64,000 nt of DNA from a virus. The stretch lies in the IMG/VR virus record IMGVR_UViG_3300017783_000001; one strand, 5' to 3'. This document shows, piece after piece, positions 14,473 to 36,937 of the stretch. The translations under genes and the position numbers were made by a program. The notes under the pieces are model-generated. The model was not told where the DNA came from, ran no database searches, and saw only the letters and a list, made by a program, of their open reading frames with translations. Every line of letters begins with the position of its first letter. The first letter of the stretch is position 1.

Positions 14473-14805
14473 TTAACCCGCTAGCGGATTTTTTGCTTTT
14501 AATTTAAGTTCTTGGATTTGTAGTTTTAAGACTTCAATTTCTTTCTCGTTTACTTTTGTTTGTGTTTTGTTCTTTTGTACACTACCAGAAATATCAGCAG
14601 GTATATTACCTTCTAATTCTGTAATCTTAATTTCTAATGCTTTAATTGATTCTTGTAGAGGTGCAATATTAACACCTTTTCTTTCTTCTAATGCGTTCAT
14701 TTTAGTAGTCAATTCTCCGTATTTAACGAATCCACCACCAATAGCAACTACGGCTGCGATTAAAGCTGCCACACTTGCCAAGTTATCTTTTAATTGTTTT
14801 ATCAT
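14473..14805 (-). CDS. N-terminal TM coiled-coil protein
   Basis: TM LASVAALIAAVVAIGGGF; C-terminal NPLAG. Confidence 0.7.
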   Translation of the reverse strand: MIKQLKDNLASVAALIAAVVAIGGGFVKYGELTTKMNALEERKGVNIAPLQESIKALEIKITELEGNIPADISGSVQKNKTQTKVNEKEIEVLKLQIQELKLKAKNPLAG

Positions 14806-16589: not shown

Positions 16590-16644
16590 ATACTATTACT
16601 CCTGTATAAATTGTTAACCATATTAATGTTTCCATAGTGTGTCC

Positions 16645-17424
16645 TTATTTTGATTTATTTACTTTCTTTTCAAGTTTCTCAACTTTCTTTTCAAGTTTAT
16701 CTGCGTATGCGTCTAACTTCTTATTTTCTTTTCTTATCTCATTAGCGATAGCAGTTTGTTCAGTTAATTGGTAATTTAAAGACTTGTCTTTTTCACTAGT
16801 CTTTGTTAATTCTTTTTCTTTGTTCTCTATGACTTTTAGTTTCTCAACATATAAATCATAGTCTGGTCTTAACTTATCGTATTTGTTCCATTGTGCTTGT
16901 GCTTCTGAACCAATCTTACCTTGATATGGGCAAGGTGTTCCGGAATGTATCATTGCTTCAAACACTCTAGGATCCTGACACAATATAGAAACAGCAGCGA
17001 CCTTCATACCTAGGTCATTTAAGACTTTACTTAATTTAATTCGTTCACAATTTTCGTCTCTTATGTGAGCACCAAGTGATAATCCGATACCAGGATATTG
17101 TAACCCACCAGACATACCCATAACGCAAACATCTTGCGACATAGCACTCATAGAGGGCGCTGAGGCAGTATTCTGTTGGTCTCTTATGTTTGAGTTGTTG
17201 TTTGTGGTTGCGTTAGTCGTACTTGTGGTATTACTAGACGAACCATCTTGGTAAGTAGTTGTTTCTTCCTGTGAATATCCACCTGTGATTGTAGTATTAC
17301 TTCCCGTAGAATTTGAGAGAGTATTTGTAGTCGCTCCAGATGATGTCGTATCAGACCAAACAGGACTTGTAGTGAGTCCTAGCATAATGAAACATACTAT
17401 AAAAAGATTAAATAATCTATCCAT
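16645..17424 (-). CDS. Exported Cys-rich protein
   Basis: Signal peptide, Thr/Asn-rich region, DVC...DENCER...LCQDPRV...GTPCP, coiled-coil tail. Confidence 0.75.
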   Translation of the reverse strand: MDRLFNLFIVCFIMLGLTTSPVWSDTTSSGATTNTLSNSTGSNTTITGGYSQEETTTYQDGSSSNTTSTTNATTNNNSNIRDQQNTASAPSMSAMSQDVCVMGMSGGLQYPGIGLSLGAHIRDENCERIKLSKVLNDLGMKVAAVSILCQDPRVFEAMIHSGTPCPYQGKIGSEAQAQWNKYDKLRPDYDLYVEKLKVIENKEKELTKTSEKDKSLNYQLTEQTAIANEIRKENKKLDAYADKLEKKVEKLEKKVNKSK

Positions 17425-17455: not shown

Positions 17456-17463
17456 TATTTATA
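17456..17463 (-). promoter_or_regulatory. T4-type late promoter
   Basis: TATAAATA about 30 nt upstream of the ORF. Confidence 0.75.
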
Positions 17464-19341: not shown

Positions 19342-19783
19342 ACATTCTCACACTATAGTAAGCAGATTTAATTTTCCACTTAGGAACTGAAGGTTCTGAA
19401 TTTTCCATACCTTGTCTGAATATCTTATCTGCTATACTTCTATATAGTTCTCTTTGTTTCTTTGTAGATATGATACCTTCTTTAAATGCACCGTTAATTT
19501 TTTCGTATAAAATGTCGTGTATTACAGCTGCTCTTGCAACATCAAATGGAGCAATAAATGCCCAACATATTCTTGGTACACTTGCAAGGTCTGTTATATA
19601 ATTTTTTGGTACCGTAATTGTTGCTGTATTTTTTCCATTATCAATAACATCTACGCTACATTCTTTCAACATTTCTACTTCTGTATTATCTAAATCATCT
19701 GATTTAAACCTTAGCGCTTTATTTAATACCCAGTTTCTTGGTGGTAAAAATATTGCGTCTAATAATCCGTTAAAACTACTCAT
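19280..19783 (-). CDS. DUF1353 family protein
   Basis: VPKNYITDLASVPR, AAVIHDILY, ADKIF, VRMFG. Confidence 0.85.
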   Translation of the reverse strand: MSSFNGLLDAIFLPPRNWVLNKALRFKSDDLDNTEVEMLKECSVDVIDNGKNTATITVPKNYITDLASVPRICWAFIAPFDVARAAVIHDILYEKINGAFKEGIISTKKQRELYRSIADKIFRQGMENSEPSVPKWKIKSAYYSVRMFGRWAINSSAPRGAKPQAKK

Positions 19784-20366
19784 TGTTATCCTCTCGTTTA
19801 ACTATTTTTAAGTTCTTTGTTTTCTTATCTTGTTTTATTCCGTGTCTAGGATCCTTGTTGGCTTGTAAACCAATCTTCCTGCTAGGTCGTGTTGCACTAA
19901 CTGGAGGAGTATCTCCTAAACTTGGTATTGGGTTAAGTGAACCATAAGAACCTTGACCGATACTACCAAAGGCACTATCAGTTAATTTTGCTTTTTCTAA
20001 AATTGATTTTTTTTGTTCACCTACGACAAACTCTGGTTCGTTTTTACCGTATGTTAATTCGTCTACAATAACATCTAGTCTATCTAATTGGTCTAATACA
20101 CTATTCAGTACAGCGTTATTGTTATCTTTGTTCTCTTTAATCTTTGTACCAAGTCTAGTTAGAACATCTTTCTTTTTTTTCTTATCTTGTACAGCGTCAG
20201 GTGGCATAGATACTCCACCGTGTGCAACTGCATTAGCAGGCGCTTCTTCTGGAACACAATTAGGTACAACTCGGTCACCTTTCTTTTTAGTGCCGACTTG
20301 TTTGTAACCTGTCCAACAAGCTTCCCATACATCTTTAAATTCTTTTAATTTTTTATCTTCGCTCAT
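19776..20366 (-). CDS. Probable internal head protein
   Basis: EFKDVWE-ACWTGYKQVG...VPNCVPEE-APANAV modules typical of T4-like core proteins. Confidence 0.6.
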   Translation of the reverse strand: MSEDKKLKEFKDVWEACWTGYKQVGTKKKGDRVVPNCVPEEAPANAVAHGGVSMPPDAVQDKKKKKDVLTRLGTKIKENKDNNNAVLNSVLDQLDRLDVIVDELTYGKNEPEFVVGEQKKSILEKAKLTDSAFGSIGQGSYGSLNPIPSLGDTPPVSATRPSRKIGLQANKDPRHGIKQDKKTKNLKIVKREDNNE

Positions 20367-20946
20367 CTAAATAGTCTCCAGGAACATATATTTCTTGCAT
20401 ATCTTTACCGTACTTCATCTTATATATATCTAAACCTAACACCGTGGAATCAGGTGTAAGTTCTTCTAAAGTAAAGACATCTGTACCTTTAGGTAAAAAT
20501 TCTTCGCCAGTAAATAGTTCTTCTTTTAATTGATAACTTCCAACTTTTAAAGTTGAATCTGTAAAGTACTCTTCATTAAGAGACATAGAATAAACTAATT
20601 CGTTCTTCTCTTTTAATATCTTAACAAGTGTACTCTCTATGTTCTTACCTTGGTCTAAAGCAAACTCTTTATCTTCTTTTAGTAATAAACCTAATGCAAC
20701 AGCAAATGAACCTATCTTACCACCTAATCCTACTCTACCTAGTATTCTTTTTAAGTTGAATACAAATCTATGTAGCATTGTGTAAGATGATTTTTCTGCA
20801 CCTGTTTTTAATAGTCTATATGGTTTAAGTACTTTACCATCTGCGTCTATAATACCTGTTTTAAACGCTGCTTGGTTCTTAAACGGAGTAACCAATAATT
20901 TAATTACTCTATAAGCTATTAATAAATCTACTGCTCTACTTGCCAT
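20353..20946 (-). CDS. Conserved T4-like late protein
   Basis: AVDLLIAYRVIKLLVTPF...GIIDADG...HRFVFNLKR. Confidence 0.7.
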   Translation of the reverse strand: MASRAVDLLIAYRVIKLLVTPFKNQAAFKTGIIDADGKVLKPYRLLKTGAEKSSYTMLHRFVFNLKRILGRVGLGGKIGSFAVALGLLLKEDKEFALDQGKNIESTLVKILKEKNELVYSMSLNEEYFTDSTLKVGSYQLKEELFTGEEFLPKGTDVFTLEELTPDSTVLGLDIYKMKYGKDMQEIYVPGDYLDERR

Positions 20947-21308
20947 TATAGTTTCTCTAACTCCTGTTTAACATATTCGTCTTCTGTCAGTTCATTTAGT
21001 TCCGACGGATACAAATAGTTTAGGTATTTAAAAACAGACTTTAGGATTGGCCAATACTTCGTATCATTTTTATATAACAATAAAGTTATACAGGCATCCG
21101 TACCGAAAACATTTTGTAGTACGATAATATGATTTGTTACCAACCTAATTTTTAATAGGCTCGTAGTTTCATATTTCCGAAACAATCTTTTGAGATATTT
21201 AAATCTCTTTATATCATCCCAAAATTCTTTTTCAGTTTCAAATGTCGGATTATCATAATGCTTTTGTGCATATAATAACCAATTCTTATCGGTTATCTGT
21301 TTGAACAT
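20946..21308 (-). CDS. Conserved T4-like hypothetical protein
   Basis: YAQKHYDNP, DIKRFKYLKRL, RLVTNHII..NVFG. Confidence 0.75.
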   Translation of the reverse strand: MFKQITDKNWLLYAQKHYDNPTFETEKEFWDDIKRFKYLKRLFRKYETTSLLKIRLVTNHIIVLQNVFGTDACITLLLYKNDTKYWPILKSVFKYLNYLYPSELNELTEDEYVKQELEKL

Positions 21309-21318
21309 TAACTTACGC

Positions 21319-21741
21319 CTATTTTAATTTAGCGTAAACCTTTGATGAACCGTTAGACAATGTTTCGTACTTAACTTCTAATTTTAAGTTATCAATACCA
21401 GGACCATTATCTACTACTACATCTTCAGGTTTCGTTTCAGTTGTTTTACCGTATGTACCACCGAATTGTTTTACTTCACCAGATACCGTTCCAGCGTCAC
21501 CTTCTAATTTCATAGGTGAAATGTCTAAACCAATTCTCATTAACTTTTCTCTTAATGAATCAACTGCTTGTTGTGGTTTGATATATTCCATATCTGCAAC
21601 CGAACCAACAAATGCGTTAACTCTTTTAAGTACATTAGGGTCTTTCAAATTTGCTGTACCGATATTACTATCTTCAGCAGCATTTGATGTAGCTGTTCCG
21701 ACCATCTTGTCTTCTTTTATGTGTTCTTTAAAAGTTTTCAT
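21319..21741 (-). CDS. Probable internal head protein with capsid-targeting-like N-terminus
   Basis: MKTFKEHIKE, close to the T4 CTS MKTYQEFIAE. Confidence 0.65.
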   Translation of the reverse strand: MKTFKEHIKEDKMVGTATSNAAEDSNIGTANLKDPNVLKRVNAFVGSVADMEYIKPQQAVDSLREKLMRIGLDISPMKLEGDAGTVSGEVKQFGGTYGKTTETKPEDVVVDNGPGIDNLKLEVKYETLSNGSSKVYAKLK

Positions 21742-21891
21742 TTATTCCTCTTTTTCTTTTTTATTATCTTTTTTAGTACCAGGTACTAAATCTTCTTCAA
21801 ATTCATTAAGGTCATTTTCAGTATTAACCTCGTTTGGGTTAACCGTTAAAATCTCTTGTAAAGTATTTGACTTTTCAGTTATTTTATCCAT
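21742..21891 (-). CDS. Small acidic peptide (49 aa)
   Basis: Read manually: MDKITEKSNTLQEIL...DLNEFEE. Confidence 0.55.
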   Translation of the reverse strand: MDKITEKSNTLQEILTVNPNEVNTENDLNEFEEDLVPGTKKDNKKEKEE

Positions 21892-22126
21892 TTGGTTGTT
21901 CCTCTACAGCGGGTGTTAACTCTTTTTCTGCTTCTCTTAATGTCAAATCGCTATCTGCTTTTCGCATTAACTTTTCTAGTACTTGTACTGCACCGTGCAA
22001 AGCATTTAAACGAGACTTTGTACTTGCTAGTTCATTCTCTAGTTTGTTAACACTTTCAGTTAGTGTTTCTCTTTCTTTAAATAGTTGATTATATTCTTTC
22101 TCAACTACGCCAAGTGATATAGCCAT
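21884..22126 (-). CDS. Small coiled-coil protein
   Basis: Heptads, LNALHGAVQVL. Confidence 0.7.
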   Translation of the reverse strand: MAISLGVVEKEYNQLFKERETLTESVNKLENELASTKSRLNALHGAVQVLEKLMRKADSDLTLREAEKELTPAVEEQPNG

Positions 22127-22153
22127 AATTATTTCTCCTCAAATTAATTAATA

Positions 22154-22603
22154 TTATGCGAGTGTAGCACCATTATGTGCAATTACATTCCATTTAGAAT
22201 TTTTAAATAAACAAGTTACCGTTTCACCTTCACCATCTAAAGAGATAGTTGAATATCCTCTTAAATTATCTGGTGTAATAGTGATGGCGTTACCACCAGT
22301 ACCTACTGCAATAATTGTTTTAATCATTCCGTTAGTACCATCTGCCATTGAAAGTGCTGTTGCACCGCCAGATTGGTCTACTTCTGTAATTGCTGATGTT
22401 GTGTTAATCGCTGTACTAGTAGAAGTTAATGCTTCACTAGTTGATGTCAATCCGATAAAAGTTGGGATGTTATTAAAAACATCTTTCGCTGTTACCTTTT
22501 TATTAATTGGTGTATTTGAAGGGTCATCAACAATATGGAATAAATCCTCTACTGCCAATGATGTGCCTAGGTTATCTAGGGCTGTAATTTTCTTGTCTGC
22601 CAT
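22154..22603 (-). CDS. Virion structural/fibre protein
   Basis: MADKKITAL start typical of T4-like fibre/decoration proteins; late promoter upstream. Confidence 0.7.
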   Translation of the reverse strand: MADKKITALDNLGTSLAVEDLFHIVDDPSNTPINKKVTAKDVFNNIPTFIGLTSTSEALTSTSTAINTTSAITEVDQSGGATALSMADGTNGMIKTIIAVGTGGNAITITPDNLRGYSTISLDGEGETVTCLFKNSKWNVIAHNGATLA

Positions 22604-22671
22604 TTTTGTTCTCCTATAATTCCACTAATTGTGGTAAACTACTGCGTACATCATATACGCACCATTAATAC

Positions 22672-22679
22672 TATTTATA
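22672..22679 (-). promoter_or_regulatory. T4-type late promoter
   Basis: TATAAATA. Confidence 0.75.
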
Positions 22680-22684
22680 CAAAT

Positions 22685-22711
22685 AAAAAAGGGGACCACA
22701 AAGGATCCCCT
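22685..22711 (-). terminator. Rho-independent terminator
   Basis: AGGGGAUC-CUUUGU-GGUCCCC followed by a U6 tract. Confidence 0.85.
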
Positions 22712-22743
22712 AATATTGTTAATTTTATTGTTCTTATTATCTA

Positions 22744-23322
22744 TTACGCAACAGCAGTAATTGTTCCTGCGCCAGAACCAGCAGCAGCTGATATAGCGAC
22801 AGCAGCAGCACTTGAAGCAACCGTATCAGTAATAGTTCCACCTGCTAAAGCGACATTCTGAGCCGCAATAGATAGTACATCATCTGCACTAATAGTTGAA
22901 CCACCTGCACCTACAACTAATGTAAATGTTACCGTGTTAGCAGTTGCAGCCGATTTCGTCAATGTTAATGACGCAGCTGAACCACCACCTGCTTGTGAGT
23001 TGGTTACTGCGATTGTAGGCGAACCTGCAACCGTTATTTGTTCGTTATAGTTTACCGTTACCGATAAAGTACCACCAGCAGATACATCAAATTCTGATAT
23101 ATCCCATTCAGTTGATGAAATTGTAGCGGCAGCTAATGCTGTTGCTAATCCACCAATTGCGACTAGTACTTCAGGAGTAGCGGAAGTATTTCCGTTTCCA
23201 GTTCTAGCAGACCCTGCTCTTACAACCCAACCTTTTTCATTAGCAAAAACTTCTGCTTTTTCAGTTGTAGTAAGATTTTTAGGTTTACTTTCATCACTGG
23301 AGCTTGATCCCCATAAACTCAT
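22744..23322 (-). CDS. Virion structural protein, Ig-like (head decoration-like)
   Basis: MSLWG...EVLVAIG N-domain plus an Ala/Thr-rich beta domain; monocistronic late unit. Confidence 0.7.
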   Translation of the reverse strand: MSLWGSSSSDESKPKNLTTTEKAEVFANEKGWVVRAGSARTGNGNTSATPEVLVAIGGLATALAAATISSTEWDISEFDVSAGGTLSVTVNYNEQITVAGSPTIAVTNSQAGGGSAASLTLTKSAATANTVTFTLVVGAGGSTISADDVLSIAAQNVALAGGTITDTVASSAAAVAISAAAGSGAGTITAVA

Positions 23323-23369
23323 AGTATCTCTCCTTATTAATTTAAGTTAACTTAATGATTAATCGTTTA

Positions 23370-23377
23370 TATTTATA
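23370..23377 (-). promoter_or_regulatory. T4-type late promoter
   Basis: TATAAATA. Confidence 0.75.
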
Positions 23378-23384
23378 AGATTGA

Positions 23385-23981
23385 CTATTTAAAACCAAGT
23401 TTCTTCAATTCAGAAATCGTTTTAGCAGTACTAGTATGATGAATACCTATACCACCTCTTGCTCTAAACTGATTGATGTTTTTAATATAGTCGTCAATTA
23501 GAATTGTTGGCATACCACCAACTTTAGCAAAATTCTGTTTTTCTCTTCGTTTTACTAAATTCACTTTACTACCGGACATACCTAATTTTGTTCTAGCCCA
23601 TTTTGATTTGCCAGGAATACAACTAGGATCCGAAGTCTGTTCTACATAAGCAGATAAGATATGTGGGTCATACTTTGATATGAAAGACCAAAGTCTTTGA
23701 CCACCTGGATTCCAAGGTAATGTAGACCAGAAATTTTTAGTCTGCATTATTGGTTGCCACTTATCTCTTATTGTTTTAAATTTCTTTCTAGGTTCTAATG
23801 CCCATTGTGATAGAGGCATTTTAACTGCCTTTTGTGCAGCTTGTTCAAAATTACATAGGACTCCGTCCATATCACAATAGATACGAGGCAACTTCTTATT
23901 GTCTTGTCTAAATGCTTCGTTTTTTAATGATAGTTTTTTGACTTGATGTACAACATCACTTCGGAGTTCTTTGAATTTCAT
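23385..23981 (-). CDS. HAD-family 5'(3')-deoxyribonucleotidase-like phosphatase
   Basis: DMDGVL motif I, ILIDD motif IV, GGIGIHH. Confidence 0.85.
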   Translation of the reverse strand: MKFKELRSDVVHQVKKLSLKNEAFRQDNKKLPRIYCDMDGVLCNFEQAAQKAVKMPLSQWALEPRKKFKTIRDKWQPIMQTKNFWSTLPWNPGGQRLWSFISKYDPHILSAYVEQTSDPSCIPGKSKWARTKLGMSGSKVNLVKRREKQNFAKVGGMPTILIDDYIKNINQFRARGGIGIHHTSTAKTISELKKLGFK

Positions 23982-24012
23982 AGTGTTTTATATCCTTTTT
24001 TCATTATGCTTT

Positions 24013-24055
24013 ATATTAACACATTTCTATAGCTTTGTCAAGCACAAAATGAGCA
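24013..24055 (-). promoter_or_regulatory. Sigma70 promoter with upstream TGCTC box
   Basis: TGCTC-N7-GCTTGACA-N17-TAATAT. Confidence 0.75.
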
Positions 24056-24066
24056 AAAAGATGTAA

Positions 24067-24387
24067 TTATGTTGTATAATCTATCTTAGGATTAACATCA
24101 ATCTTGTCTGATTTACTTGCGTTTAATGTAGTTTTCTTTTCAGGTTCTTTTGACTTGATGTTCATAGGGTCTTTAGGTTCTTGTGATTTAGGTAGAACCG
24201 TATCTCCGGACATATCTTTATTTGTGTTATCTTCTTTCTTTGCTCTTAATTTTGCAAGGTCAGAACCATCAATCTTACCGTTATTGTTCTTATCTAATTT
24301 TTGTTGTTTCGGAGATAACTTCTCTTGCATTACTGCAGCTGTTATCGCTTCTTCAACTGAACCAGGTTTACTTTTTAAATATGACAT
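24067..24387 (-). CDS. EF-hand-containing prohead-core-like protein
   Basis: DKNNNGKIDGSDL loop after the VMQE site. Confidence 0.7.
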   Translation of the reverse strand: MSYLKSKPGSVEEAITAAVMQEKLSPKQQKLDKNNNGKIDGSDLAKLRAKKEDNTNKDMSGDTVLPKSQEPKDPMNIKSKEPEKKTTLNASKSDKIDVNPKIDYTT

Positions 24388-24388
24388 A

Positions 24389-26353
24389 TTAGCTTCCTTT
24401 TACTTTAGCGGCAAGGTCTTTGTCTGCCCCACCCCAAGTTCCACTTGATTTAGTTATAAATGAATTTACTCTAGCAAACGCCCATTGGTGTTGACTAGCC
24501 CCAGGTCTATGTCCACCTTTCCAGGCAGCCATTCCTCTATCGTATACTTTCTTTAGAATACCATATGGCATTCCAGATTTTTCTGCTTTGTTTTTTAATC
24601 CTTCAATTGCTTCATACATTTCTTTTGCAGGATGATTTTTGTTTTCAATGTTAAGTTTCTTCTTAACCATATTAGTAGCAGTTCCGTATCTAACACTATC
24701 GCCTTTCTTACCGTAAGCGTCTTTAAATTTCTTCTTCGGTAATTCATCAGCCATTTTATGTACTTGTTTGATTTGACCTTTAGTCATATCAGTATCTTCT
24801 TTTTTCTCTTTATTCTTTGGTTCTTTATATCCATTTGCGAAAGCAGCTTTTCTTTGTGCGTCTGAAGCAAAGCCTTCGTTAGTTCTTTGTAATACTTTTT
24901 GAACATCTGGATGGTCAGATAAACCTTTTGCGATTTTTTCAATTGCCTTAATGGCACCTGTCATATCGCCACCTTTATATCTCTTATCGTTTGCAACGCC
25001 ATATGCCATTTTGATTTGTTGTGAAGTAAATGTAGCTTCTGAAATAACTTCTTCTTTTACATTTTTCTTTTGTTTATCTCTTAATATCTTTTGTGCTAAT
25101 CCAACTTGTAATGGAACTTCTCCTGTATCAGGATTTGGTTCTGGTTTGATTGCTTTATTCTTTTCGTTTTCTAATTTTGTTTTTAACATATGTATCTGGT
25201 CTTTAAGAGCGTCTACATCAACTTTAGGTTCATCTTTCTTCTCTTTCTTCAAGTCTTTAAACTTAATCTTACCAGATTCAACTTCACCATTTTCTGTTTC
25301 TTCTGTAAACTTAACTGGTGCTAATACCGTACCGTGTGTTTTTGGGTCTAGTACTACCATCATTTCTTGTCCTGGTGTAGTCTTCTTATAATCTTTATTA
25401 ATCTTTTTGAAATTTGCTTTACTGATTTCAACAGGACCTTTACCAGTATATTTGTAATCTCTACCAGCAAGTACTGCCTCTTCAATTTTACTTTCAGTCT
25501 TTAAGTGAGACCTAGTTGCTAATTGCATATCTAAAATTTTTCTCATATTACCTTTTAGTTCAATACCACCAGGTACATCTGATACTTTTAATCCGTGTTG
25601 TTTTGCAAGTGAAACCATATTTGATTTCTCTTTTTCATTTGTGAAACCTTTAATAGTTCCTGTACCTTCGTTTAATTCGTCTTCTTCTTTAGTTAGTATT
25701 CTAGTGTCTGGGAAGTTATCCATTACTTTTTTATGGATTGCTTCTACATCTTTTGCACTATCAATTCTAACTTCTGAACCAGATTTAGAAATTTCTCCAC
25801 CACCTGTTTTACCTTTAAACATATTTGCAATCTTACTTGCTTCACCACCGTTCTTTGCCATATACTCTACATAATCAGTATATTCTAAAATAACTTGGTC
25901 CCAAGATTTGTTTTCAAATGCTGAAAGTTTTACACCTTTAGGTACTTTGATACCTTTTTGTATCATACGACTAACTGCCATTGCTGAAATAAAAGGAATG
26001 TCTGCTTTGAAGAGTTTAGGAAGTTGTGCGTCTGCAATTTTGTCAAAGATGTTTCTTAACTGATTTGCTCTTGCGATAGATATTCTCTTACCTGCAAGAC
26101 TAGCATATTCTGCTTTTAACTTTTTGATTTGTTGGTCTGTAAATTCAACCAGTTGTTCTTCCTTGATGTCTTCTTCACCTAGAATAGTTTTAACGGTTGC
26201 AACAGGCAACTTCATTTGTTTTGCAATGTCTTCAGCTGATTTACCTTGGTCAAAAAGAGTAGCAATAGTCTTCATCTTGCCTTCGTCAATCTGAATATCG
26301 TTTGCCCACACCTCTTCTAGTGCTTCTCTCATTGTTTGTGTATATCTTGTCAT
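24389..26353 (-). CDS. Modular internal head protein / probable polyprotein (C-terminal DUF5824-like domain)
   Basis: Short basic modules separated by L/I/V-x-E; C-terminal RGMAAW...QWAFARVNSF. Confidence 0.65.
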   Translation of the reverse strand: MTRYTQTMREALEEVWANDIQIDEGKMKTIATLFDQGKSAEDIAKQMKLPVATVKTILGEEDIKEEQLVEFTDQQIKKLKAEYASLAGKRISIARANQLRNIFDKIADAQLPKLFKADIPFISAMAVSRMIQKGIKVPKGVKLSAFENKSWDQVILEYTDYVEYMAKNGGEASKIANMFKGKTGGGEISKSGSEVRIDSAKDVEAIHKKVMDNFPDTRILTKEEDELNEGTGTIKGFTNEKEKSNMVSLAKQHGLKVSDVPGGIELKGNMRKILDMQLATRSHLKTESKIEEAVLAGRDYKYTGKGPVEISKANFKKINKDYKKTTPGQEMMVVLDPKTHGTVLAPVKFTEETENGEVESGKIKFKDLKKEKKDEPKVDVDALKDQIHMLKTKLENEKNKAIKPEPNPDTGEVPLQVGLAQKILRDKQKKNVKEEVISEATFTSQQIKMAYGVANDKRYKGGDMTGAIKAIEKIAKGLSDHPDVQKVLQRTNEGFASDAQRKAAFANGYKEPKNKEKKEDTDMTKGQIKQVHKMADELPKKKFKDAYGKKGDSVRYGTATNMVKKKLNIENKNHPAKEMYEAIEGLKNKAEKSGMPYGILKKVYDRGMAAWKGGHRPGASQHQWAFARVNSFITKSSGTWGGADKDLAAKVKGS

Positions 26354-26367
26354 CTTATATTTCTCTC

Positions 26368-26649
26368 CTAAAATTCCTTTATTTCTATAATTAGTCTACC
26401 TTCACCTTTGTGTACTCTATGAAATGTTTCCTTTGGTATATCAAAAACATCTCCTACTTTCATAATGACTGGGAGTTTATTATCCATTTGTAATTTCCAA
26501 TTAACTCCTGCAATAATTCTTATCGTTCTATTTCGTCTATCTCGGTGCCAAACTAAATTCTCTTCTTTGGCGTCTTGTCCGAAACTCCGTTGAAAGAAAT
26601 CGTCCGTTTTTGTTTCGTCCGGTCTTTCATCATAAAATTCCATTGTCAA
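26368..26649 (-). CDS. Cupin-fold protein
   Basis: LVWHRD, W.LQ.DN.LP, IPKETFHRV. Confidence 0.75.
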   Translation of the reverse strand: MTMEFYDERPDETKTDDFFQRSFGQDAKEENLVWHRDRRNRTIRIIAGVNWKLQMDNKLPVIMKVGDVFDIPKETFHRVHKGEGRLIIEIKEF

Positions 26650-26652
26650 CTC

Positions 26653-27192
26653 CTACCAGTAAAAGTTACCCCCACCCGATAGTCCTAATGACTTCGCATA
26701 ACGAGGTAAGTTGCAAGCCCAATAGGCAGCACTTGTTTTATCTTTTTGTTGGTCGCACTTATGACGAGCAGCAAAAGATTTTCTGGCTTGTTTGTCGTTT
26801 AACTTAACTCTTAAACCAGTAGTGTCTCCCCAAGTAACCTTCTTAATCTTATCTCCGTCCTTTACAAAAACATAAAACTTTTTAGGTCCACCTTTTTTTG
26901 GTTTATTTAAAGGCGGATTCTTTTCGTCTTCTTCTTGTATCGGACAATCTAAAGGTACTTTCATACCTTCATATTCAGCAAATTCTCCAATGTCTGTTTC
27001 TAATAAAGTTCTATCCCATTCACTTTCGCATTGTAATAGACCTTCATTAAACATATGTCTTGCTTCTCTAAACAAGGCATAAAACTCTTCGCTATGTACT
27101 CTATATATGTTCTCAGCAAGAGGTATGCTATTCTCAATATGATAGTTTAACGAGACCGTTATCTTATCTGCATAATCACTAAATCTTAACAT
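26653..27192 (-). CDS. Two-domain late protein with C-terminal DUF6321-like domain
   Basis: KKFYVFV, ARKSFAARHKCD, AYWAC; PIQE junction. Confidence 0.65.
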   Translation of the reverse strand: MLRFSDYADKITVSLNYHIENSIPLAENIYRVHSEEFYALFREARHMFNEGLLQCESEWDRTLLETDIGEFAEYEGMKVPLDCPIQEEDEKNPPLNKPKKGGPKKFYVFVKDGDKIKKVTWGDTTGLRVKLNDKQARKSFAARHKCDQQKDKTSAAYWACNLPRYAKSLGLSGGGNFYW

Positions 27193-30103
27193 ATTCTTTA
27201 AAAGATTGTACTTTCAATCTCTCCTCCATTTTTTTCACAGCGTCATTCAATTCTACTTGATATTCTTCTCCGTATCGTTTCTTATATTTATCAATAGTCT
27301 CACTTGAAGAAGCCCATTTCTGTATATCTTCTTGGTTTATTGTCTCTGGACTCGTTTCTGCACGCTGTCCTGGGGTTACTCTTTTAGTATGGTCTGCATA
27401 ATCTTTACCTATCTCGTAAGATTCTTTACCATACATTTGTTGATATTTCTTTGTATGTACACTAGTAGTTGTCTTTGCGTCTTTATCTCCTGGTGCAGCT
27501 TTGTAATCTTTATCATTATCTGATTTATTATATTTTTGTTTAGAAAAGTGTTTTGCTCTTTTTTCTTTTTCACCTTTCTTCATATCTTTGTAATACTTTT
27601 TAGGTTGTGTACCTTTTTTAGATTTTACATCTTTATCTTGTGGTAATTTCTTACCATATTCTTCATTCATTTTGACTTCCGTTTCTGATACTGCTTCAAA
27701 ACCATAGTCTACATTTAAATTAATTTCGTGTAATTTAGTTTCATCTATGTTAGTCTGTGGAATACAATTCCATATCCAACATTTATGTAAGTTAGAATTA
27801 TTGTCTTCTAATACAACATAGTTTGTACTTCTACGAATTACTTTACCTGTAATCTCTTGTTCTTGGTCTTCAACACTATCGTTTATGTTAAATAGTTGTT
27901 CACGGATATACAAGTCTCTTAAATGCCATTTAGTAAAGCTTTCAACACTAGCGATAGGTTGATATGTTCCGATACCTGGTCCAGTATAACCTGCAGCCAA
28001 GTTCATTCCTTTTCTAATTAATCCAAATAGTTTATCTTTATCTCTAAAAGATGTAGGTAGACCTTGTTTAAAAGATTTAAGGTCATTAGATTGAGCCGCA
28101 GCTCTCATTTTACTTGCTGACATTCCCATAGCGCCTTCAGCGTCTGGGTCTCTTTCGCCAGCAGATACGATATTGATTTTATCAAACTCGTAATTTGTTC
28201 CTCTTGCTTGTACACCGTTGTACTTGTTTAGTAGTGTTTCAAATTCTCTTACTCTATCTGAACCAACTACCATTGTTATTTCGTTTGCTTTGCCATTTAA
28301 TTTATTAACAACTTCAATTGCTGTTCTAGCACCAGTAATTTGTTTTATCTTACTTGCGTGTCTAGGAAACATAGATTTCATAACTCTAATCTTGTCGTTA
28401 ACTTTTAATGGATTTTTCTTTGGGTCTTGCGAACCACTTGGCACAATGAGATAATCATTAGCACCTACAGACGCCACTTTGTTAATTAACTTTTCGTGGC
28501 CTATCGTTGGTGGATTAAATCTACCAAATGTAAATGCGATATGTTTTTTAGGTGTGCCTACTGCTTCAGTTTTTAGACTATCAATTTCTTTATCGGTAAC
28601 TATACCGTCATCTAAAATCTTCTTGCACTTCTTAAAGAAAGTAATGTAATGATATTTCTCTAACATCTTATAGATTACATTTTTAGGTAATCTGTTTTTA
28701 ATACTATACTTTCTGATTTCGTCTGGCGACATATCTGTATCAAACGCACTTCTTCTTTCTGCGTCAACACCGTCACCAATCTTTATTATGTCCTCTATAT
28801 CAGTTTCTATTTCTTCTAACTTACTCTCTACTCTTGCTTGTAAGTTTTCTATATCGTCAGGACTTAATTCTTTTAATTCGTCATAGTCAACAATGTCTCT
28901 TTTTAGTTCACCTTTGACTACATCTATTTCTTGTACTTTCTTATTGAAGTCAGCAATATAATCATCAACATTAAAAGTAAAATCTTCAGGTCTTTTAACA
29001 AATACATTTCTTGTAATTGAAAATACTGCGTCTGCTTTTTTCTCTTGGTCTTTATATGTTGCTTCATCGGTTACAAAATAATAGTTAATAGGATGTTTTG
29101 TACCAGGTATTAATTTACCTTGTATGTTATTTGGATTCTTTGATGAAAGATATTGTAAAGATAGTCTTTCTCTTTCTGCAACTCTTTCACTTTCAGGTAC
29201 ATCAAATAATACATTGATGTCTAGGTCTGCGTCATTTCTATATCTATGTGTTAGAATAGAACCAATCAAACCATACTTAATAACTGGAAATTCTTTTTCA
29301 AATACTTTGATTTGGTCTTGTATTTGTTTTACTACACTTGCTTTTATTTTAGGATTATTTGTATCTGCATTATCAAATACAGCAGGTGCATATGTTTTTC
29401 TAGGAATGTCAATAATACTTTCCTGAATATCTACCATATTGATTAACTTATCTGCAATCTTTACAGACATTGTATGGTCAGATGGATAGTGCCAACCTGC
29501 AACAACTCTACCATAACCACATTCATCAGCAAGTTCTATTAGATTATCTTTATGTTTAGGATATAATTTACCATAGTATTCTGCAATTAGTCTACTTTGT
29601 AAACTATGACCAGATGGATATGCTGGTGTCTTCATACTATCAGAAATTAATTCCATACTATCAAAATCCATATTCATTTCTTTTGCAAGTTCATATGGTC
29701 TTGGTCTTTGAAATTTGTTTTTGTAATGTCTAACTACACCACTACCTGCTTTCTTTAATTCAGATATATCTTTCTTATCATATTCTAAATTATATTTCAT
29801 TAGGTATGCTTCAATACCATAAAATGTTTCTTGGTCGTGGTTCTTTACGCTTTCTACAACTGCACTATTTCTTTGTTTAAATAGTTCAGTCATCATTTCT
29901 AATTCTCTTTTAGTTTCAGGACTATCATTTTCAGAAGGTGCTTTAACATCTATTTTTTTCCAGTCACCAACAATATTCTGTACAGGTTTGTTGTCAACTT
30001 TAGGGTGTGTTAAATCATTCAAGTCTTCTGCTACAGACTTGCACTTCTTTAATAGTTCTTTAACATAGTCCATTCTATGTTTCTTTTGAAAATTATCTGG
30101 CAT
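27179..30103 (-). CDS. Multidomain enzyme: PAP2 phosphatase + Pol-beta-type nucleotidyltransferase + HxGH cytidylyltransferase/NMNAT-like domain + basic C-terminal modules
   Basis: KNKFQRPRP / YPSGHS / GRVVAGWHYPSD; IGSILT...DADLD; FGRFNPPTIGH, VGSDR, MSASKMR. Confidence 0.85.
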   Translation of the reverse strand: MPDNFQKKHRMDYVKELLKKCKSVAEDLNDLTHPKVDNKPVQNIVGDWKKIDVKAPSENDSPETKRELEMMTELFKQRNSAVVESVKNHDQETFYGIEAYLMKYNLEYDKKDISELKKAGSGVVRHYKNKFQRPRPYELAKEMNMDFDSMELISDSMKTPAYPSGHSLQSRLIAEYYGKLYPKHKDNLIELADECGYGRVVAGWHYPSDHTMSVKIADKLINMVDIQESIIDIPRKTYAPAVFDNADTNNPKIKASVVKQIQDQIKVFEKEFPVIKYGLIGSILTHRYRNDADLDINVLFDVPESERVAERERLSLQYLSSKNPNNIQGKLIPGTKHPINYYFVTDEATYKDQEKKADAVFSITRNVFVKRPEDFTFNVDDYIADFNKKVQEIDVVKGELKRDIVDYDELKELSPDDIENLQARVESKLEEIETDIEDIIKIGDGVDAERRSAFDTDMSPDEIRKYSIKNRLPKNVIYKMLEKYHYITFFKKCKKILDDGIVTDKEIDSLKTEAVGTPKKHIAFTFGRFNPPTIGHEKLINKVASVGANDYLIVPSGSQDPKKNPLKVNDKIRVMKSMFPRHASKIKQITGARTAIEVVNKLNGKANEITMVVGSDRVREFETLLNKYNGVQARGTNYEFDKINIVSAGERDPDAEGAMGMSASKMRAAAQSNDLKSFKQGLPTSFRDKDKLFGLIRKGMNLAAGYTGPGIGTYQPIASVESFTKWHLRDLYIREQLFNINDSVEDQEQEITGKVIRRSTNYVVLEDNNSNLHKCWIWNCIPQTNIDETKLHEINLNVDYGFEAVSETEVKMNEEYGKKLPQDKDVKSKKGTQPKKYYKDMKKGEKEKRAKHFSKQKYNKSDNDKDYKAAPGDKDAKTTTSVHTKKYQQMYGKESYEIGKDYADHTKRVTPGQRAETSPETINQEDIQKWASSSETIDKYKKRYGEEYQVELNDAVKKMEERLKVQSFKEYVKI

Positions 30104-30767
30104 TTCTTTTCTTCGCTAGTTCTTGTTCTATCCATTTCTTTGCGACATAATTTTGAACAGGTTTTCTAACGAGTCCTCTAATTCGTGTGTAAACTTTGTT
30201 AAGTGTATCTTCACTTGCATTATTATTATCAACTACAATCATACTACCAGTACCAAATAGATTTTGAAATCTACCTATATTACTTTGTACAACATTCCAA
30301 CTCTTCGTTGCAATATTTACAGGCACGGTTCTAGTTCTAACTTTGTTTCTTTGTAATGCAACTTCTAAACTTGTATTTACAAACATCATATAAGTATCGT
30401 AACCTAACATTCTTAACATACTTCTTTGTTTATTAATAATATCATAGTCTCTACCTGTGGCGTCAATGACAAGACCTAATCTATTTCTAATATATAAGTC
30501 CATCTGGTCGCCTGTAATTTGTTTTGCTCTCGCTCTTAATGGGTCTCTTTGACCTGCTTCTTTATCTGGCATTTTTAATGAGAGACCTGCCTTCTTTAAA
30601 TACATTTCAAATCTGACATCTGAATTAACTAATTTTAAACCCATACCAGCAGTTGTTCTATTGGTAACATATGACTTACCAGAACCAGGACCACCTGCTA
30701 AAAAGAACGCTTTGAATATACCTGGGTCGTAAACGCCTTCTTGTATTATGTGTTTAAAAGTTTTCAT
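30093..30767 (-). CDS. P-loop kinase (AAA_33 / zeta-toxin / polynucleotide-kinase-like)
   Basis: GGPGSGKS, NSD, LVIDATG, ALQRNKVR.R lid; N-terminus MKTFKHIIQE. Confidence 0.8.
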   Translation of the reverse strand: MKTFKHIIQEGVYDPGIFKAFFLAGGPGSGKSYVTNRTTAGMGLKLVNSDVRFEMYLKKAGLSLKMPDKEAGQRDPLRARAKQITGDQMDLYIRNRLGLVIDATGRDYDIINKQRSMLRMLGYDTYMMFVNTSLEVALQRNKVRTRTVPVNIATKSWNVVQSNIGRFQNLFGTGSMIVVDNNNASEDTLNKVYTRIRGLVRKPVQNYVAKKWIEQELAKKRNAR

Positions 30768-31060
30768 ACTTTGTATAGAGTATACTTTAAAGTTAACTCT
30801 TCTCCTTCTTTTATATCTTCTAGTGTTTGTACATAATATTTTCCATCAACTTCTATCTTTTGACAATTAGGTTTATCACTATGATTTAAAAAACCACCAA
30901 GTGGTGTTCTATAAATTTCTCTACCCATAGTCAAATGAGAGATACCTAAATCTGTCATCTTATCAATTGTTGCTGTTGCAAATAAACCAAAACCTTCTAT
31001 TGGCGATAACTTTATTGTTATATTATCAGGTAAAGGTCTATACTTATCTGTCATCTCCAC
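30764..31060 (-). CDS. Minimal SET-domain methyltransferase
   Basis: GFGLFA, FLNHSDKPNC, DIKEGEELTLKY. Confidence 0.85.
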   Translation of the reverse strand: MEMTDKYRPLPDNITIKLSPIEGFGLFATATIDKMTDLGISHLTMGREIYRTPLGGFLNHSDKPNCQKIEVDGKYYVQTLEDIKEGEELTLKYTLYKV

Positions 31061-31361
31061 TACCTTGTATTTTGTTTCTTTCTTGTCTATCTTTTAATTT
31101 TTGTAAATTTAATTGTGCGATTGTATCTAAATCAATATCTAAATCTCTCGCAAGTGCTGATATGTACCATAACACATCACCTAATTCTTTTTTCATATCT
31201 TCTTTAAATGTAGGACTTGCACCGTCTCTAATATTCTTTTTAACTTTTTCTGCGACTTCACCTGCTTCACCACATAATCCTAATGCAGGATAAGTTACCT
31301 TACTTGCAAGTGGATAAATTGCTGTGTTTGCAGCTAGAGTTTGGTATTCATTAAATTGCAT
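31044..31361 (-). CDS. mazG: MazG-like NTP pyrophosphohydrolase
   Basis: LGLCGEAGEVAEKVKK, KELGDVLWY. Confidence 0.9.
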   Translation of the reverse strand: MQFNEYQTLAANTAIYPLASKVTYPALGLCGEAGEVAEKVKKNIRDGASPTFKEDMKKELGDVLWYISALARDLDIDLDTIAQLNLQKLKDRQERNKIQGSGDDR

Positions 31362-31950
31362 TTTCTATCTCCTTAATAATGTCTTTCGCAATATCTCCAG
31401 GTTCTTTTCCTTCAGCTTTGATAGATATAAACCCAGGTCTTTTTTTGTAATGTTCAATGGCAGGTCCTGTTTCTTTTTTGTATAACTGGATTCTATCATT
31501 AATAATATCTGGCTTATCATCTTTTCTTCCTCTCTTTGTAAGTCTTCTAATAACTTCTTCATTACTCACATCAAGGAATACAACAACATCATAAGCGATA
31601 CCATTTTTTTCCATATCTCTTACTTGTTGCATATATCTAGGATAACCATCTAACACATAACCTTTTGAAGCGTCTTTCTCTTGTAATGCTTTCTTCACTA
31701 ATTTTAAAACTATATCGTTAGGTGCAAACTTACCTTGGTCTAATAAGTTCTTAATCTTTTGTCCTTCAGGACCACCTTTATCAATTTCTTTTCTTAATAA
31801 ACCACCTGGGTAAATATGTTTGATACCAAAGTGTCTTATAATGTATTCACTATAAGTTGATTTACCACTTCCTGGTCCACCCATTATAATAACTCTAGTT
31901 TGTTTTGCTTCGTTCAAAAAATTGAATAGATATTGTTTAAATGTATCCAT
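31351..31950 (-). CDS. adk: Adenylate kinase
   Basis: GGPGSGKST, LDGYPR, RGRKDD; N-terminus MDTFKQYLFNFLNE. Confidence 0.88.
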   Translation of the reverse strand: MDTFKQYLFNFLNEAKQTRVIIMGGPGSGKSTYSEYIIRHFGIKHIYPGGLLRKEIDKGGPEGQKIKNLLDQGKFAPNDIVLKLVKKALQEKDASKGYVLDGYPRYMQQVRDMEKNGIAYDVVVFLDVSNEEVIRRLTKRGRKDDKPDIINDRIQLYKKETGPAIEHYKKRPGFISIKAEGKEPGDIAKDIIKEIENAI

Positions 31951-31951
31951 A

Positions 31952-33166
31952 CTAACCTTTCACCCAATCTTTTGCAATCGTAAAGTTTGCTCTACTAAAT
32001 TCTAATCTGTCTACAAGTTTAACTACATTACCAATCTTATCTGTTGCAACATAACCTTCAGGTGATGTTACCTTAAAACCATTATCGGTTTTTAAAAAGT
32101 GTCCGATAGATTGTATCTGTGCTATTTTTCTTACTACAATGTTTTTGCAATTCTGTAATGTGATGTATGTTGCAATTGCGAAATATAAAGATTGTTTATT
32201 TCTTTGAATAAATTTTATGTTATCTGCTTTTGCTTTAATATAAGGTGCTTTACCTTTTTCTGTTTTTCTATTATCTATTTCTTTGTCAATGAAACTTGTA
32301 TAGTATGGTTCAAAACCATCTACTAGTTGTTTAACACTACCCATACCTTGTGTACCTCTAACGATACTATTGAAATATGTTTTAATTTTAAAACCTACAC
32401 TTAACTCGTCTCTACTATCAAACTGATTTAACATAGGTCCTGCTTTAGATAAACTACCTTGTGCCATTCTTAACTGAGCATTGAATTGTGAAACTTCAGC
32501 ACGATTGAAACTTGCACTACCACTAGCGTCTTTGTATTCTGCACTTGGTACCCATACACTACCACTTCTGATTCCTCTAACATATCCAAAGTTAGCATTT
32601 AATTCTGACATTTTATTACCAACATATTGAGTATGAAACACTATGCCCATTCTAGCACGAGCAATCTTACGACCGACAGCACTATTAACAGGCATAGCAT
32701 ATGTTATAGTATTAGGAGTAAAGGTAATCATTGATTGTCCGTCAATGTTATTCACTTTCTTATCTTCATTAGTAAAGAGACAATCACCTTGGACAATGCC
32801 TCTTATACCTAATTTTTTCAATTCTCTTAATGCAACTTCTAATTTTGCACCAACACCACCTGGGTGATTTCTTCTTATGTCTGCTGAAGTGTAATTGATT
32901 TTAGGAGTTTTATTGAATACAGATTTTGTACCGACAAAGAATTTGCCGTTTTCAGGATTAGTTCCACATACTATCGCAGGAGCGCCGTCCCACTTAACGG
33001 TTACATTTACTCTATTGCTAACATTACCTGTTAACATTTTCTGCAAAGATTGTAAGAACGCTATTGCGTTTCTACCGCCTTTGGCACCGTTATTAATTAT
33101 TTCGTCTTCTAAATGCTCAAGGTGTGTGTTCGTACCCGAGCTAGAATATCCTTTAAAACTAAACAT
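31952..33166 (-). CDS. DUF6267-like protein with RNA-ligase/covalent nucleotidyltransferase motifs
   Basis: HLEHLED, KWDG (motif I), QGD, EGYV (motif IV), VKLV (motif V). Confidence 0.7.
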   Translation of the reverse strand: MFSFKGYSSSGTNTHLEHLEDEIINNGAKGGRNAIAFLQSLQKMLTGNVSNRVNVTVKWDGAPAIVCGTNPENGKFFVGTKSVFNKTPKINYTSADIRRNHPGGVGAKLEVALRELKKLGIRGIVQGDCLFTNEDKKVNNIDGQSMITFTPNTITYAMPVNSAVGRKIARARMGIVFHTQYVGNKMSELNANFGYVRGIRSGSVWVPSAEYKDASGSASFNRAEVSQFNAQLRMAQGSLSKAGPMLNQFDSRDELSVGFKIKTYFNSIVRGTQGMGSVKQLVDGFEPYYTSFIDKEIDNRKTEKGKAPYIKAKADNIKFIQRNKQSLYFAIATYITLQNCKNIVVRKIAQIQSIGHFLKTDNGFKVTSPEGYVATDKIGNVVKLVDRLEFSRANFTIAKDWVKG

Positions 33167-33236
33167 TTTTGTCCTTCATTTTTTCCATATACAAATAAAC
33201 TATCCATTAATATAAATCTTCACTTCGTTGTGCTAC

Positions 33237-33244
33237 TATTTATA
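33237..33244 (-). promoter_or_regulatory. T4-type late promoter heading the 33.2 to 24 kb block
   Basis: TATAAATA. Confidence 0.75.
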
Positions 33245-35286: not shown

Positions 35287-35598
35287 TTATTTTGGTTGCA
35301 TTTCACAAAGAAAATGAGGTATGCCTCCGTTAACTTCCCATACTCTTTCTTTATTCTGAAATCTAACTAGTGACCTAGCATCCTTTTCAAAAAAGAAGTC
35401 TTTGACAATAACATTAGTAGGTTTTTCTATTACTCTCCAGTAAATCTTACCTCTCTTCTTAATCATTGTCTTTGTGTAGTGTAGTTTTTCGCCAGGCTCT
35501 AACCGTCTACTTTGTTTTTGTTTTGTTGGTTTTGTATTTTTTCTAGGCATAAGTTTATACTTTAAAATCTGAAAATTTGTCGTAAGGGTCTTCAGCAA
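35287..35598 (-). CDS. Conserved hypothetical protein
   Basis: Probable start MPRKN; GGIPHFL C-terminus. Confidence 0.65.
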   Translation of the reverse strand: MLKTLTTNFQILKYKLMPRKNTKPTKQKQSRRLEPGEKLHYTKTMIKKRGKIYWRVIEKPTNVIVKDFFFEKDARSLVRFQNKERVWEVNGGIPHFLCEMQPK

Positions 35599-36937
35599 AT
35601 TCTTTCTCCTGATTAGCGTCTACAATGTTTTGTGCTTTTTGCTCTACATCATACAATCTCATCTTACTTCTATCAACGCCAATAATAAAACTACGATTGA
35701 TTGAGGGATCGCTATATCTGTTCTTCAATTGTTTTACTTTCATTTGATTAAGACTATCTAACTCTTCGTTAGTCATCAAAGCAAACATAAAGTCAGCAGT
35801 AGCAGGTAGACCAAAACTTTCAGAAGTATCTTCTAATCCAATATCAGTAGATACAAAACCACTTCTTGTTGTTTGTGTAGCAGTAAATATAGGTAATTTA
35901 AATTCTACTGCAAGACCTCTTAACTCTTCTGCAATTGCTTTGATATAGAAATAAGATGATATGTTACCACCTTTAAATCTACTTGAAGCACATATGTTAA
36001 GATAATCTATGAATACAACATCAGGTTTAAAACTTTTCTTTAATGCAAGTTCATTTAATAATCCTTTAAAGTGTCCACTATGAGCAGACGCTGTAGGATA
36101 TTCTTTTACGATTAATGTACCAGGACTTTTTGCTTTTAACTTTTTAATTCTATCATCAAACATATCTTTAGGTAAAGCGTGTAAGTCATCTGTGGTAACA
36201 TCTAATAAATTACTATCAATTCTTTCTGCGATTCTTTCTTCTGCCATCTCCATTGTAATGTATAAAACATTCTTACCTTCAAGTAATGAAGTAGCAGCGA
36301 GGTGACACATAAACAAAGATTTACCTACACCAGTACCGGCAAGACATACATTCAATGTCTTCTGTGGCACACCGCCTTTAGTTATTCTATTGAAATATTG
36401 TAAATCAAAAGGAAGTCTTAATTCTTTCCTATGGTAATAATCAAATCTATCATCTGCATCCCCAATGTAATCGTGCCCAATGTGATTATCAAAAGACACA
36501 GCAAGAGCTTCAGATAAAATTGAAGGAATGGCCTCCGCATTTCTTTCCTTGTCTTTTCCATCCAAGATTTTAATGCCGTTAAGTACTGCATTGTTTACCG
36601 CCTTGTCTTTACAGAATTTCTCCGTAGTGTCAAACAACCATTGTATATCACTCTCTTGTGGAGTTAATCCGTTTATTGTTGTTTTAATAGCCTTAAACTC
36701 TTCCTCGTTAATATCTTTACGATTGTTTAATTCTATAATCAAGGTCTCTTTTGTAGGAAGATTATTATATTTAGTTATGAAATCATAGATTGATGTAAAT
36801 AAAAGTTTATCACTTCTTGTGCCAAAGTATTCATCTTTTAAAAACGGCAATACCTTTCTAGTATATTCTTCATTGAATATTAAGTTTGTCAGTATTGTGT
36901 CTTCAAGTCTATTTGTCATCAAGGATTGTTCCGTCAT
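35555..36937 (-). CDS. gp41: Replicative DNA helicase
   Basis: LAGTGVGKS, EMAEE, IDYL, IAEELRGLA, SESFGLPATAD, LKNRY. Confidence 0.97.
   Translation of the reverse strand: MTEQSLMTNRLEDTILTNLIFNEEYTRKVLPFLKDEYFGTRSDKLLFTSIYDFITKYNNLPTKETLIIELNNRKDINEEEFKAIKTTINGLTPQESDIQWLFDTTEKFCKDKAVNNAVLNGIKILDGKDKERNAEAIPSILSEALAVSFDNHIGHDYIGDADDRFDYYHRKELRLPFDLQYFNRITKGGVPQKTLNVCLAGTGVGKSLFMCHLAATSLLEGKNVLYITMEMAEERIAERIDSNLLDVTTDDLHALPKDMFDDRIKKLKAKSPGTLIVKEYPTASAHSGHFKGLLNELALKKSFKPDVVFIDYLNICASSRFKGGNISSYFYIKAIAEELRGLAVEFKLPIFTATQTTRSGFVSTDIGLEDTSESFGLPATADFMFALMTNEELDSLNQMKVKQLKNRYSDPSINRSFIIGVDRSKMRLYDVEQKAQNIVDANQEKEFAEDPYDKFSDFKV

Follow-up and report, generated by a model that had tools for sequence, protein, structure and literature searches.

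IMG/VR virus record IMGVR_UViG_3300017783_000001 provides a stretch of 64,000 nucleotides (nt), hereafter the window, of pelagimyophage-like, T4-type phage DNA with all genes on the minus strand and a G+C content of about 33%. Among cultured phages it is closest to two T4-like members of the Kyanoviridae, Pelagibacter phage HTVC008M and Methylophilales phage Melnitz. We analysed a block of genes that lies between the gp41 helicase gene (35555-36937) and the genes for primase gp61 (12900-13910) and NrdA (10521-12887), and in which several predicted enzymes begin with a short leader resembling the N-terminal capsid targeting sequence (CTS) of T4 internal proteins (IPs). A block at the equivalent position is found in HTVC008M and in the cyanophages Syn9 and S-SM1, with 22 genes in the window and 22 in HTVC008M; a megablast search of the window's block against the phage collection returned no match. 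An earlier account made from the letters alone (the sequence-only reading) had proposed that the leaders load a pre-made enzymatic toolkit into the phage head for delivery before phage transcription. The enzyme domains it named were confirmed by Pfam, and every leader-like N-terminus it quoted was found at the gene concerned, on the minus strand. The features, with domain calls from Pfam and PHROGs, protein lengths in amino acids (aa) and slashes marking the putative cut, are:

33237-33244, minus strand: late promoter TATAAATA, 71 nt upstream of the DUF6267 start
31952-33166, minus strand: DUF6267 ligase-like protein with a KxDG motif (Pfam, 1.3e-122); leader MFSFKGY, degenerate and without Glu
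31351-31950, minus strand: short-type adenylate kinase, Adk (Pfam ADK, 8.7e-41); leader of residues 1-14 (DNA 31909-31950), ending F-L-N-E/A
31044-31361, minus strand: MazG pyrophosphohydrolase (Pfam), same operon; no leader, the N-terminus belonging to the domain
30764-31054, minus strand: 96-aa minimal SET-domain protein (Pfam SET, 7.8e-11), same operon; no leader
30093-30767, minus strand: P-loop kinase of the AAA_33/Zeta_toxin fold (Pfam); leader MKTFKHIIQE/G, residues 1-10 (DNA 30738-30767)
27179-30103, minus strand: 974-aa fusion of PAP2, a Pol-beta-type nucleotidyltransferase (NTP_transf_2) and an HxGH cytidylyltransferase-like domain (CTP_transf_like) (Pfam); motif at the C-terminus
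26653-27192, minus strand: 179-aa protein starting MLRFSDY; its C-terminal half is a phrog_7595 module
24389-26353, minus strand: 654-aa modular protein; leader MTRYTQTMREALEE/V, residues 1-14; C-terminus matching the second half of DUF5824
23385-23981, minus strand: NT5C-like HAD phosphatase (Pfam) with a 32-aa N-terminal extension; weak candidate
22744-23322, minus strand: 192-aa 'S-layer domain' homologue with its own TATAAATA at 23377-23370; homologue of S-SM1 GC425
21319-21741, minus strand: 140-aa virus-only protein; leader MKTFKEHIKE; candidate internal protein
19776-20366, minus strand: 196-aa protein with a CW-GYKQVG module, ...EFKDVWE lying ahead of the module
44521-46014, minus strand: fusion of RimK ATP-grasp and Zn_protease (Pfam), outside the block; leader MQVQNFTDFLSE/Q

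Likeness to the T4 leaders

As read from NC_000866, T4 IPII and IPIII start MKTYQEFIAE/A, IPI starts MKTFKEF... with a leader ending ...ITE/A, and the maturation site of gp23 is F-G-S-F-L-T-E/A (Glu65). Proteins were ranked by a T4-template score, in which residues 2-7 are compared by BLOSUM62 with the two T4 leaders (IPI; IPII/IPIII); this was the only test fixed beforehand. The three highest of the 93 window proteins were the 140-aa protein (25), the P-loop kinase (21) and Adk (20), followed by a next best score of 13. These are three of the proteins on which the sequence-only reading had seen T4-like leaders, and all three are encoded inside the gp41-gp61 block. The best T4-like leader is that of the 140-aa protein, whose first six residues (MKTFKE) are identical to those of IPI; this protein has no Pfam match, and its Atlas clusters are all viral. 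For HTVC008M, the four best of 197 genes by the same score all fell in the syntenic block.

An alternative explanation is that the resemblance reflects chance or the composition of AT-rich gene starts, at which Met-Lys and A-rich codons favour initiation. The leaders do begin ATG AAA ACT TTT AAA, which are preferred AT-rich codons, and Met-Lys starts are common in the window. However, a score of at least 20 was reached by only 2 of 11,073 internal 6-mers of the window proteins (1.8e-4 per 6-mer), and none of 90 wrong-strand open reading frames (ORFs) scored 15 or more. The matches were also confined to one block in two genomes, and the motif recurs inside fusion proteins (see below), where initiation is irrelevant. 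Chance and AT-rich start bias were therefore excluded on the basis of the null rate and the wrong-strand scores, and we regard this explanation as extremely improbable.

Conserved positions and position of the leader relative to the fold

CTS residues 4 and 7 direct targeting in T4 and residues 8 and 10 direct processing, with Tyr4 and Phe7 acting as targeting determinants in IPIII (reviewed in PMC9026906). The window leaders share a consensus layout: position 4 is aromatic, position 7 hydrophobic or aromatic, position 8 Ile or Leu and position 10 Glu. As far as sequence can tell, the positions conserved here are those mapped in T4 for targeting and processing, and they match the gp23 site as well. 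Phe occupies position 4 of the kinase, Adk and the 140-aa protein. Residue 7 is Ile, Tyr and His, respectively, the His being the weakest fit; it is Phe in most Adk homologues (MKTFRDF) and, with an offset of two, in RimK homologues. The (I/L)-x-E site is formed by I8 and E10 in both the kinase and the 140-aa protein and by L12 and E14 in Adk.

The same elements were retained among homologues. All of the 120 best Adk homologues, which come from marine metagenomes, keep a leader of 9 to 25 residues that ends in [ILF]-x-E just before the first strand, most commonly MKTFRDFIFE, and all but one of the 120 best homologues of the RimK fusion carry K-F-[KR]-[DE]-[FY]-[IL]-x-E at residues 5-12. In the kinase, E10 and G11 are invariant in 14 homologues. 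Across the Adk, RimK fusion and kinase homologues [ILM]-x-E is kept and the other positions drift. Orthologues of the 140-aa protein start MKTFKEHLKE or MKSFKDF, and those of the 654-aa protein read ...EAIAE/V.

We confirmed that solved cellular adenylate kinases lack the leader, a comparison proposed by the sequence-only reading: PDB entries align only from residue 14-20 of the window Adk. Residues 1-9 of the kinase have a pLDDT below 50 in an AlphaFold model, whose fold begins at about residue 10-11. On account of these two results we take the leader to be an addition to the catalytic core. The kinase gave no match in a PDB sequence search, and a Foldseek search with its model, in which polynucleotide kinase and Adk ranked highest, identified it only as a generic P-loop kinase. 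On one IMG/VR contig (L022:3-1406), the kinase carries a different N-terminal domain of about 250 aa in place of the short leader.

Late promoters and the prohead protease

The TATAAATA octamer at 33244-33237 heads a tightly packed, gap-free operon running from 33166 to 24067. Eight copies of the octamer occur on the minus strand of the window (six of them intergenic) and none on the plus strand, and it was found at -75/-78 in 11 of 11 clade relatives with enough upstream sequence, where the flanks diverge. Two more late promoters lie ahead of 22744-23322 and of 22154-22603. The proposal that the block sits behind a late promoter thus holds for the operon 33166-24067 and fails for the HAD phosphatase gene, which has an early-type promoter (TTGACA-N17-TAATAT at 24041-24013). 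Judged by its promoter, the operon would be expressed at the time of prohead assembly. A literature search on expression timing in Syn9 found nothing usable.

The gene for a gp21-type (Peptidase_S77) protease is not within the 64-kb window and is present in HTVC008M, Melnitz, S-SM1, Syn9, S-CREM2 and two contigs: G002 (109 kb), whose kinase is 88% identical to that of the window, and G003 (53 kb), which carries L026, one of the fusion proteins described below. It was not found on G004, a fragment of 27 kb. Putative gp23 sites read A-F-L-G-E in HTVC008M and Q-F-M-T-E in G002.

Motif copies at module joints of fusion proteins

In distant IMG/VR relatives (L024, L026, L028, L029 and L032), the kinase is a module near the C-terminal end of a protein of about 1,100-1,300 aa. 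These fusions begin with the cytidylyltransferase, contain the CW-GYKQVG module and DUF5824, and in several cases end with the phrog_7595 module; most of these modules are encoded by genes of their own in the window. Three to four copies of [FY]-E-x-[FYMIV]-[LI]-x-E, 130-330 aa apart, lie between the modules of the L024, L026 and L028 fusions, one of them directly before the kinase, and the CW-GYKQVG module of L024 and L028 follows F-E-A-Y-L-x-E at a joint. The phrog_7595 module of relatives either follows leader-like motifs or ends fusion proteins. Judged by its sequence, this layout would look as expected of a protease-processed head polyprotein.

The fusions explain an otherwise odd feature of the 974-aa protein, which ends in QSFKEYVKI (DNA 27179-27208). 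The leader-like QSFKEYV noticed there in the sequence-only reading proved to be conserved, QSFKEY[VA]K[IV] being kept in orthologues down to about 70% identity, and this C-terminus looks like a joint motif ending where the cut would fall. Two motif-coding copies lie side by side in different frames within 27179-27210, SFKEY at the end of the 974-aa gene and RFSDY at the start of the next gene, 14 nt on. For a programmed frameshift at this junction of the 974-aa and 179-aa genes, no canonical slippery heptamer was seen by eye.

The joints also bear on a second explanation, in which the motif is only a protease site (of the prohead or another protease) or a recombination linker left by module shuffling; some carriers would be cut, or have been fused at one time, and useful amounts of the enzymes would be neither retained in heads nor injected. 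It would account for a module order that varies among phages while the motif marks the joints, and for the conserved terminal motif copy of the 974-aa protein overlapping the start of the next gene in another frame. T4 internal-protein genes are moreover thought to swap at conserved leaders (Repoila et al. 1994, as cited in PMC9026906). However, T4 gp21 acts inside the prohead (PMC9026906), so that cleavage would imply a location in the head. The conservation of positions 4, 7, 8 and 10 across homologues that are 60-90% divergent argues for selection on the peptide itself, and carriers of the leader have been detected in virions (see below). We therefore consider this explanation unlikely.

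Other features of these modular proteins were noted. In the fusion proteins (L028:892-4830), the DUF5824 profile runs across a motif joint; in the window, the C-terminal part of the 974-aa protein (27179-27500) corresponds to the first half of the profile and the C-terminus of the 654-aa protein (24389-24700) to the second. Because its halves lie in separate window proteins and the joint falls inside the profile, DUF5824 looks like two modules and not one domain. Sister-clade orthologues of the 974-aa protein (L013, L014, L015 and L019) have about 785 aa and lack PAP2 (29400-30103 in the window). In the window's lineage this domain appears to be an insertion, with the N-terminal KELLKK segment on one side and ESIIDIP on the other. 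A PDB sequence search with the cytidylyltransferase-like domain gave only noise; a role like that of nicotinamide mononucleotide (NMN) adenylyltransferase, suggested by a G-R-F-x-P-x-x-x-G-H motif and a weak phrog_3462 match, is speculation.

Leader carriers in cyanophage virions

The T4-GC190 'cytidylyltransferase' was detected in purified virions of S-SM1 with 25 peptide counts, as were GC1455 with 7 and GC425 with 17 (Sullivan et al. 2010, PMC3037559). When the gene clusters were mapped onto the S-SM1 record, its gp41-gp61 block was found to encode six virion proteins (GC1453, GC190, GC1454, GC1455, GC425 and GC426). The two highest T4-template scorers among the 225 S-SM1 genes were GC190, which starts MKKFSAFLNE/A, and GC1455, which starts MLSFKELQE. 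In the window, the 974-aa protein contains the orthologue of GC190 at residues 522-781 (41% identity), and the homologue of GC425, likewise a virion protein, is encoded at 22744-23322.

For S-CREM2, virion proteins account for four of the five top T4-template scorers, compared with a background of 52 of 213 (24%) (proteome from PMC10665884). The leader carriers detected in its virions are ORF154 (the cytidylyltransferase, MKNFSSFLTE/A), ORF6, ORF136 and ORF155, and the detected scorers include a protein annotated as a SAM hydrolase (MKDFDSFLEE). Another virion protein, annotated as a nuclease, has F-A-S-F-M-A-E/A at residues 19-25. S-CREM2 L068-L077 (3837-13331) form a virion-detected, non-structural cluster with, by annotation, the SAM hydrolase, the nuclease and an APH/ChoK-like kinase, together with small ORFs 13 and 15; the F-x-x-F-[LM]-x-E leader carried by several of its members suggests a second cargo locus. 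The S-CREM2 authors raised encapsidation of these enzymes as a possibility (PMC10665884). Our literature search found no paper linking such virion enzymes to the CTS, and neither PMC3037559 nor PMC10665884 came up in a full-text search for 'capsid targeting sequence'.

A third explanation is that the peptide is no head-targeting signal but a docking tag for some cytoplasmic assembly, such as a nucleotide-synthesis or replication complex comparable to the T4 dNTP synthetase complex, with the enzymes acting late in the cell. Most tagged proteins are indeed nucleotide or phosphoryl-transfer enzymes encoded amid replication genes, and the RimK fusion lies in a replication-module operon with no TATAAATA found adjacent. 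The tag is nonetheless also carried by proteins from purified S-SM1 and S-CREM2 virions, corresponds position for position to the T4 CTS and to the cleavage site of gp23, and is encoded in an operon with a conserved late promoter. Its repeats inside the fusions, too, fit cleavage better than docking. A docking role thus seems improbable, much as the linker explanation does.

Points against head packaging and extent of the payload

Apart from the operon context of the RimK fusion, several results weigh against packaging of these proteins in the head. The motif definition was partly refined after the data had been seen. A strict regular expression gave modest enrichment in the window alone (three N-terminal matches against 0.5 expected, P=0.015) and no significant enrichment in S-CREM2 alone (3 of 5, P=0.095), which is why we relied on the T4-template score. 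The kinase E10-G11-x-x-D-P segment was modelled with confidence, and its conservation could serve the fold rather than cleavage. The cytidylyltransferase was not detected in the shallower proteomes of S-PM2 and Syn9. The leader seen on the HAD phosphatase in the sequence-only reading (MKFKEL...LKNE) is present; it has no L/I-x-E site in the window and varies among relatives, the homologue in Melnitz has no N-terminal extension, and together with the early-type promoter this makes the phosphatase a poor candidate. The MFSFKGY leader of the DUF6267 ligase-like protein is likewise present and has lost the Glu of the canonical processing site; distant orthologues keep a leader of the type M-x-x-L-K-S-F-I-V-E-E ahead of a conserved NTH motif.

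In S-SM1, neither the DUF6267 homologue GC71 nor MazG carries a leader, and neither was detected in virions, a pattern that fits the leader rule. Because MazG and the SET protein are leaderless in the window, and because the S-SM1 counterparts of MazG and DUF6267 were undetected in virions, the payload would be a subset of the block and not the whole. The 96-aa SET protein, encoded between MazG and the kinase, is kept in relatives. Just downstream of the block (14802-17424), two proteins of 595 and 259 aa have signal-peptide-like N-termini, the second lying behind a TATAAATA at 17463.

A proposed model for head targeting of phage enzymes

Head packaging best explains the comparative and published proteomic data, and the leaders are probably the marine T4-like counterpart of the T4 CTS, serving head targeting and gp21 processing. 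The leader peptide would dock the protein to the scaffolding core of the prohead, a gp21-type S77 prohead protease would cut after (I/L)-x-Glu, and the mature protein would be retained in the head and exit with the DNA at infection. The predicted cargo comprises the P-loop kinase, Adk, the 140-aa protein (21319-21741), the 654-aa protein, probably the 974-aa fusion and, from outside the block, the RimK fusion. In other lineages, the modules are joined in one long protein with a motif copy at every joint; a single act of targeting and the cleavage after it would then set several enzymes free within the head.

We infer the docking, the cleavage, the packaging of Adk, the kinase and RimK, their injection and an early role from these data, and the same holds for enzymes acting before phage transcription starts; a functional, injected toolkit is less probable than head targeting with gp21 processing. 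As for a toolkit loaded into the head, its premises (a CTS-like leader, a gp21-type site and a late promoter) and the cyanophage virion carriers lend it support, and its extension to the whole block does not stand, given leaderless MazG and SET proteins and the poor HAD candidate. A wider generalisation, which we put forward tentatively and at somewhat less than even chances, is that ocean myophages of SAR11, OM43 and picocyanobacteria use the T4-type peptide as a general loading dock to package and inject a changeable set of enzymes. This set would include Adk, the P-loop kinase, the RimK-type ligase-protease and the HxGH and Pol-beta nucleotidyltransferases, joined in cyanophages by the annotated SAM hydrolase and nuclease.

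The T4-like myophages that infect SAR11 and picocyanobacteria rank with the most common viruses in the ocean. The usual assumption about their 'auxiliary metabolic genes' is that expression follows entry. A tag marking capsid-borne enzymes, if confirmed, would change how such genes are read, would explain the non-structural enzymes in cyanophage virion proteomes and would offer a simple rule by which the leader alone predicts the injected proteome from metagenomes. Under the wider generalisation, infection of slow, nutrient-starved hosts would open with reactions carried out by pre-made phage enzymes. The tag could also extend the T4 CTS packaging tool to new hosts.

Comparison with known systems

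T4 Alt, an ADP-ribosyltransferase that is packaged in the head, processed by gp21 and injected, is a precedent for a protease-processed enzyme acting at the very start of infection; it differs from the proteins described here in its N-terminus (MELITE), which is not CTS-like, and in its enzyme chemistry and target. The proposed system is closest to the CTS of T4 IPI, IPII and IPIII as reviewed in PMC9026906 and PMC3012670 (Mullaney and Black 1996), with which it shares an N-terminal propeptide of 10-19 residues, the 4/7/8/10 layout, a gp21-type protease gene (here in relatives) and a late promoter. The T4 cargo consists of small restriction-inhibitor-type proteins, whereas that of the window would be predicted enzymes of 200-970 aa (kinases, an ATP-grasp fusion and nucleotidyltransferases). 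The window genes lie in one gp41-gp61 operon, and some lineages have a multi-module fusion with internal motif copies. The E proteins of the giant phages SPN3US and phiKZ, as described in PMC5694885 and PMC10052503, are head-internal, in some cases large and multi-domain, cut by a prohead protease at short Glu-ending motifs and ejected; by these descriptions they differ in phage lineage and in motif. A counterpart with virion evidence is the cyanophage cytidylyltransferase (T4-GC190 of S-SM1, PMC3037559; ORF154 of S-CREM2, PMC10665884), which is orthologous to residues 522-781 of the 974-aa protein and has the same gp41-gp61 neighbourhood and leader type, although in the window this domain is internal to a larger fusion. 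Compared with the T4 internal-protein system, the new elements would be the enzyme cargo and the fusion-protein forms, in very abundant marine phages.

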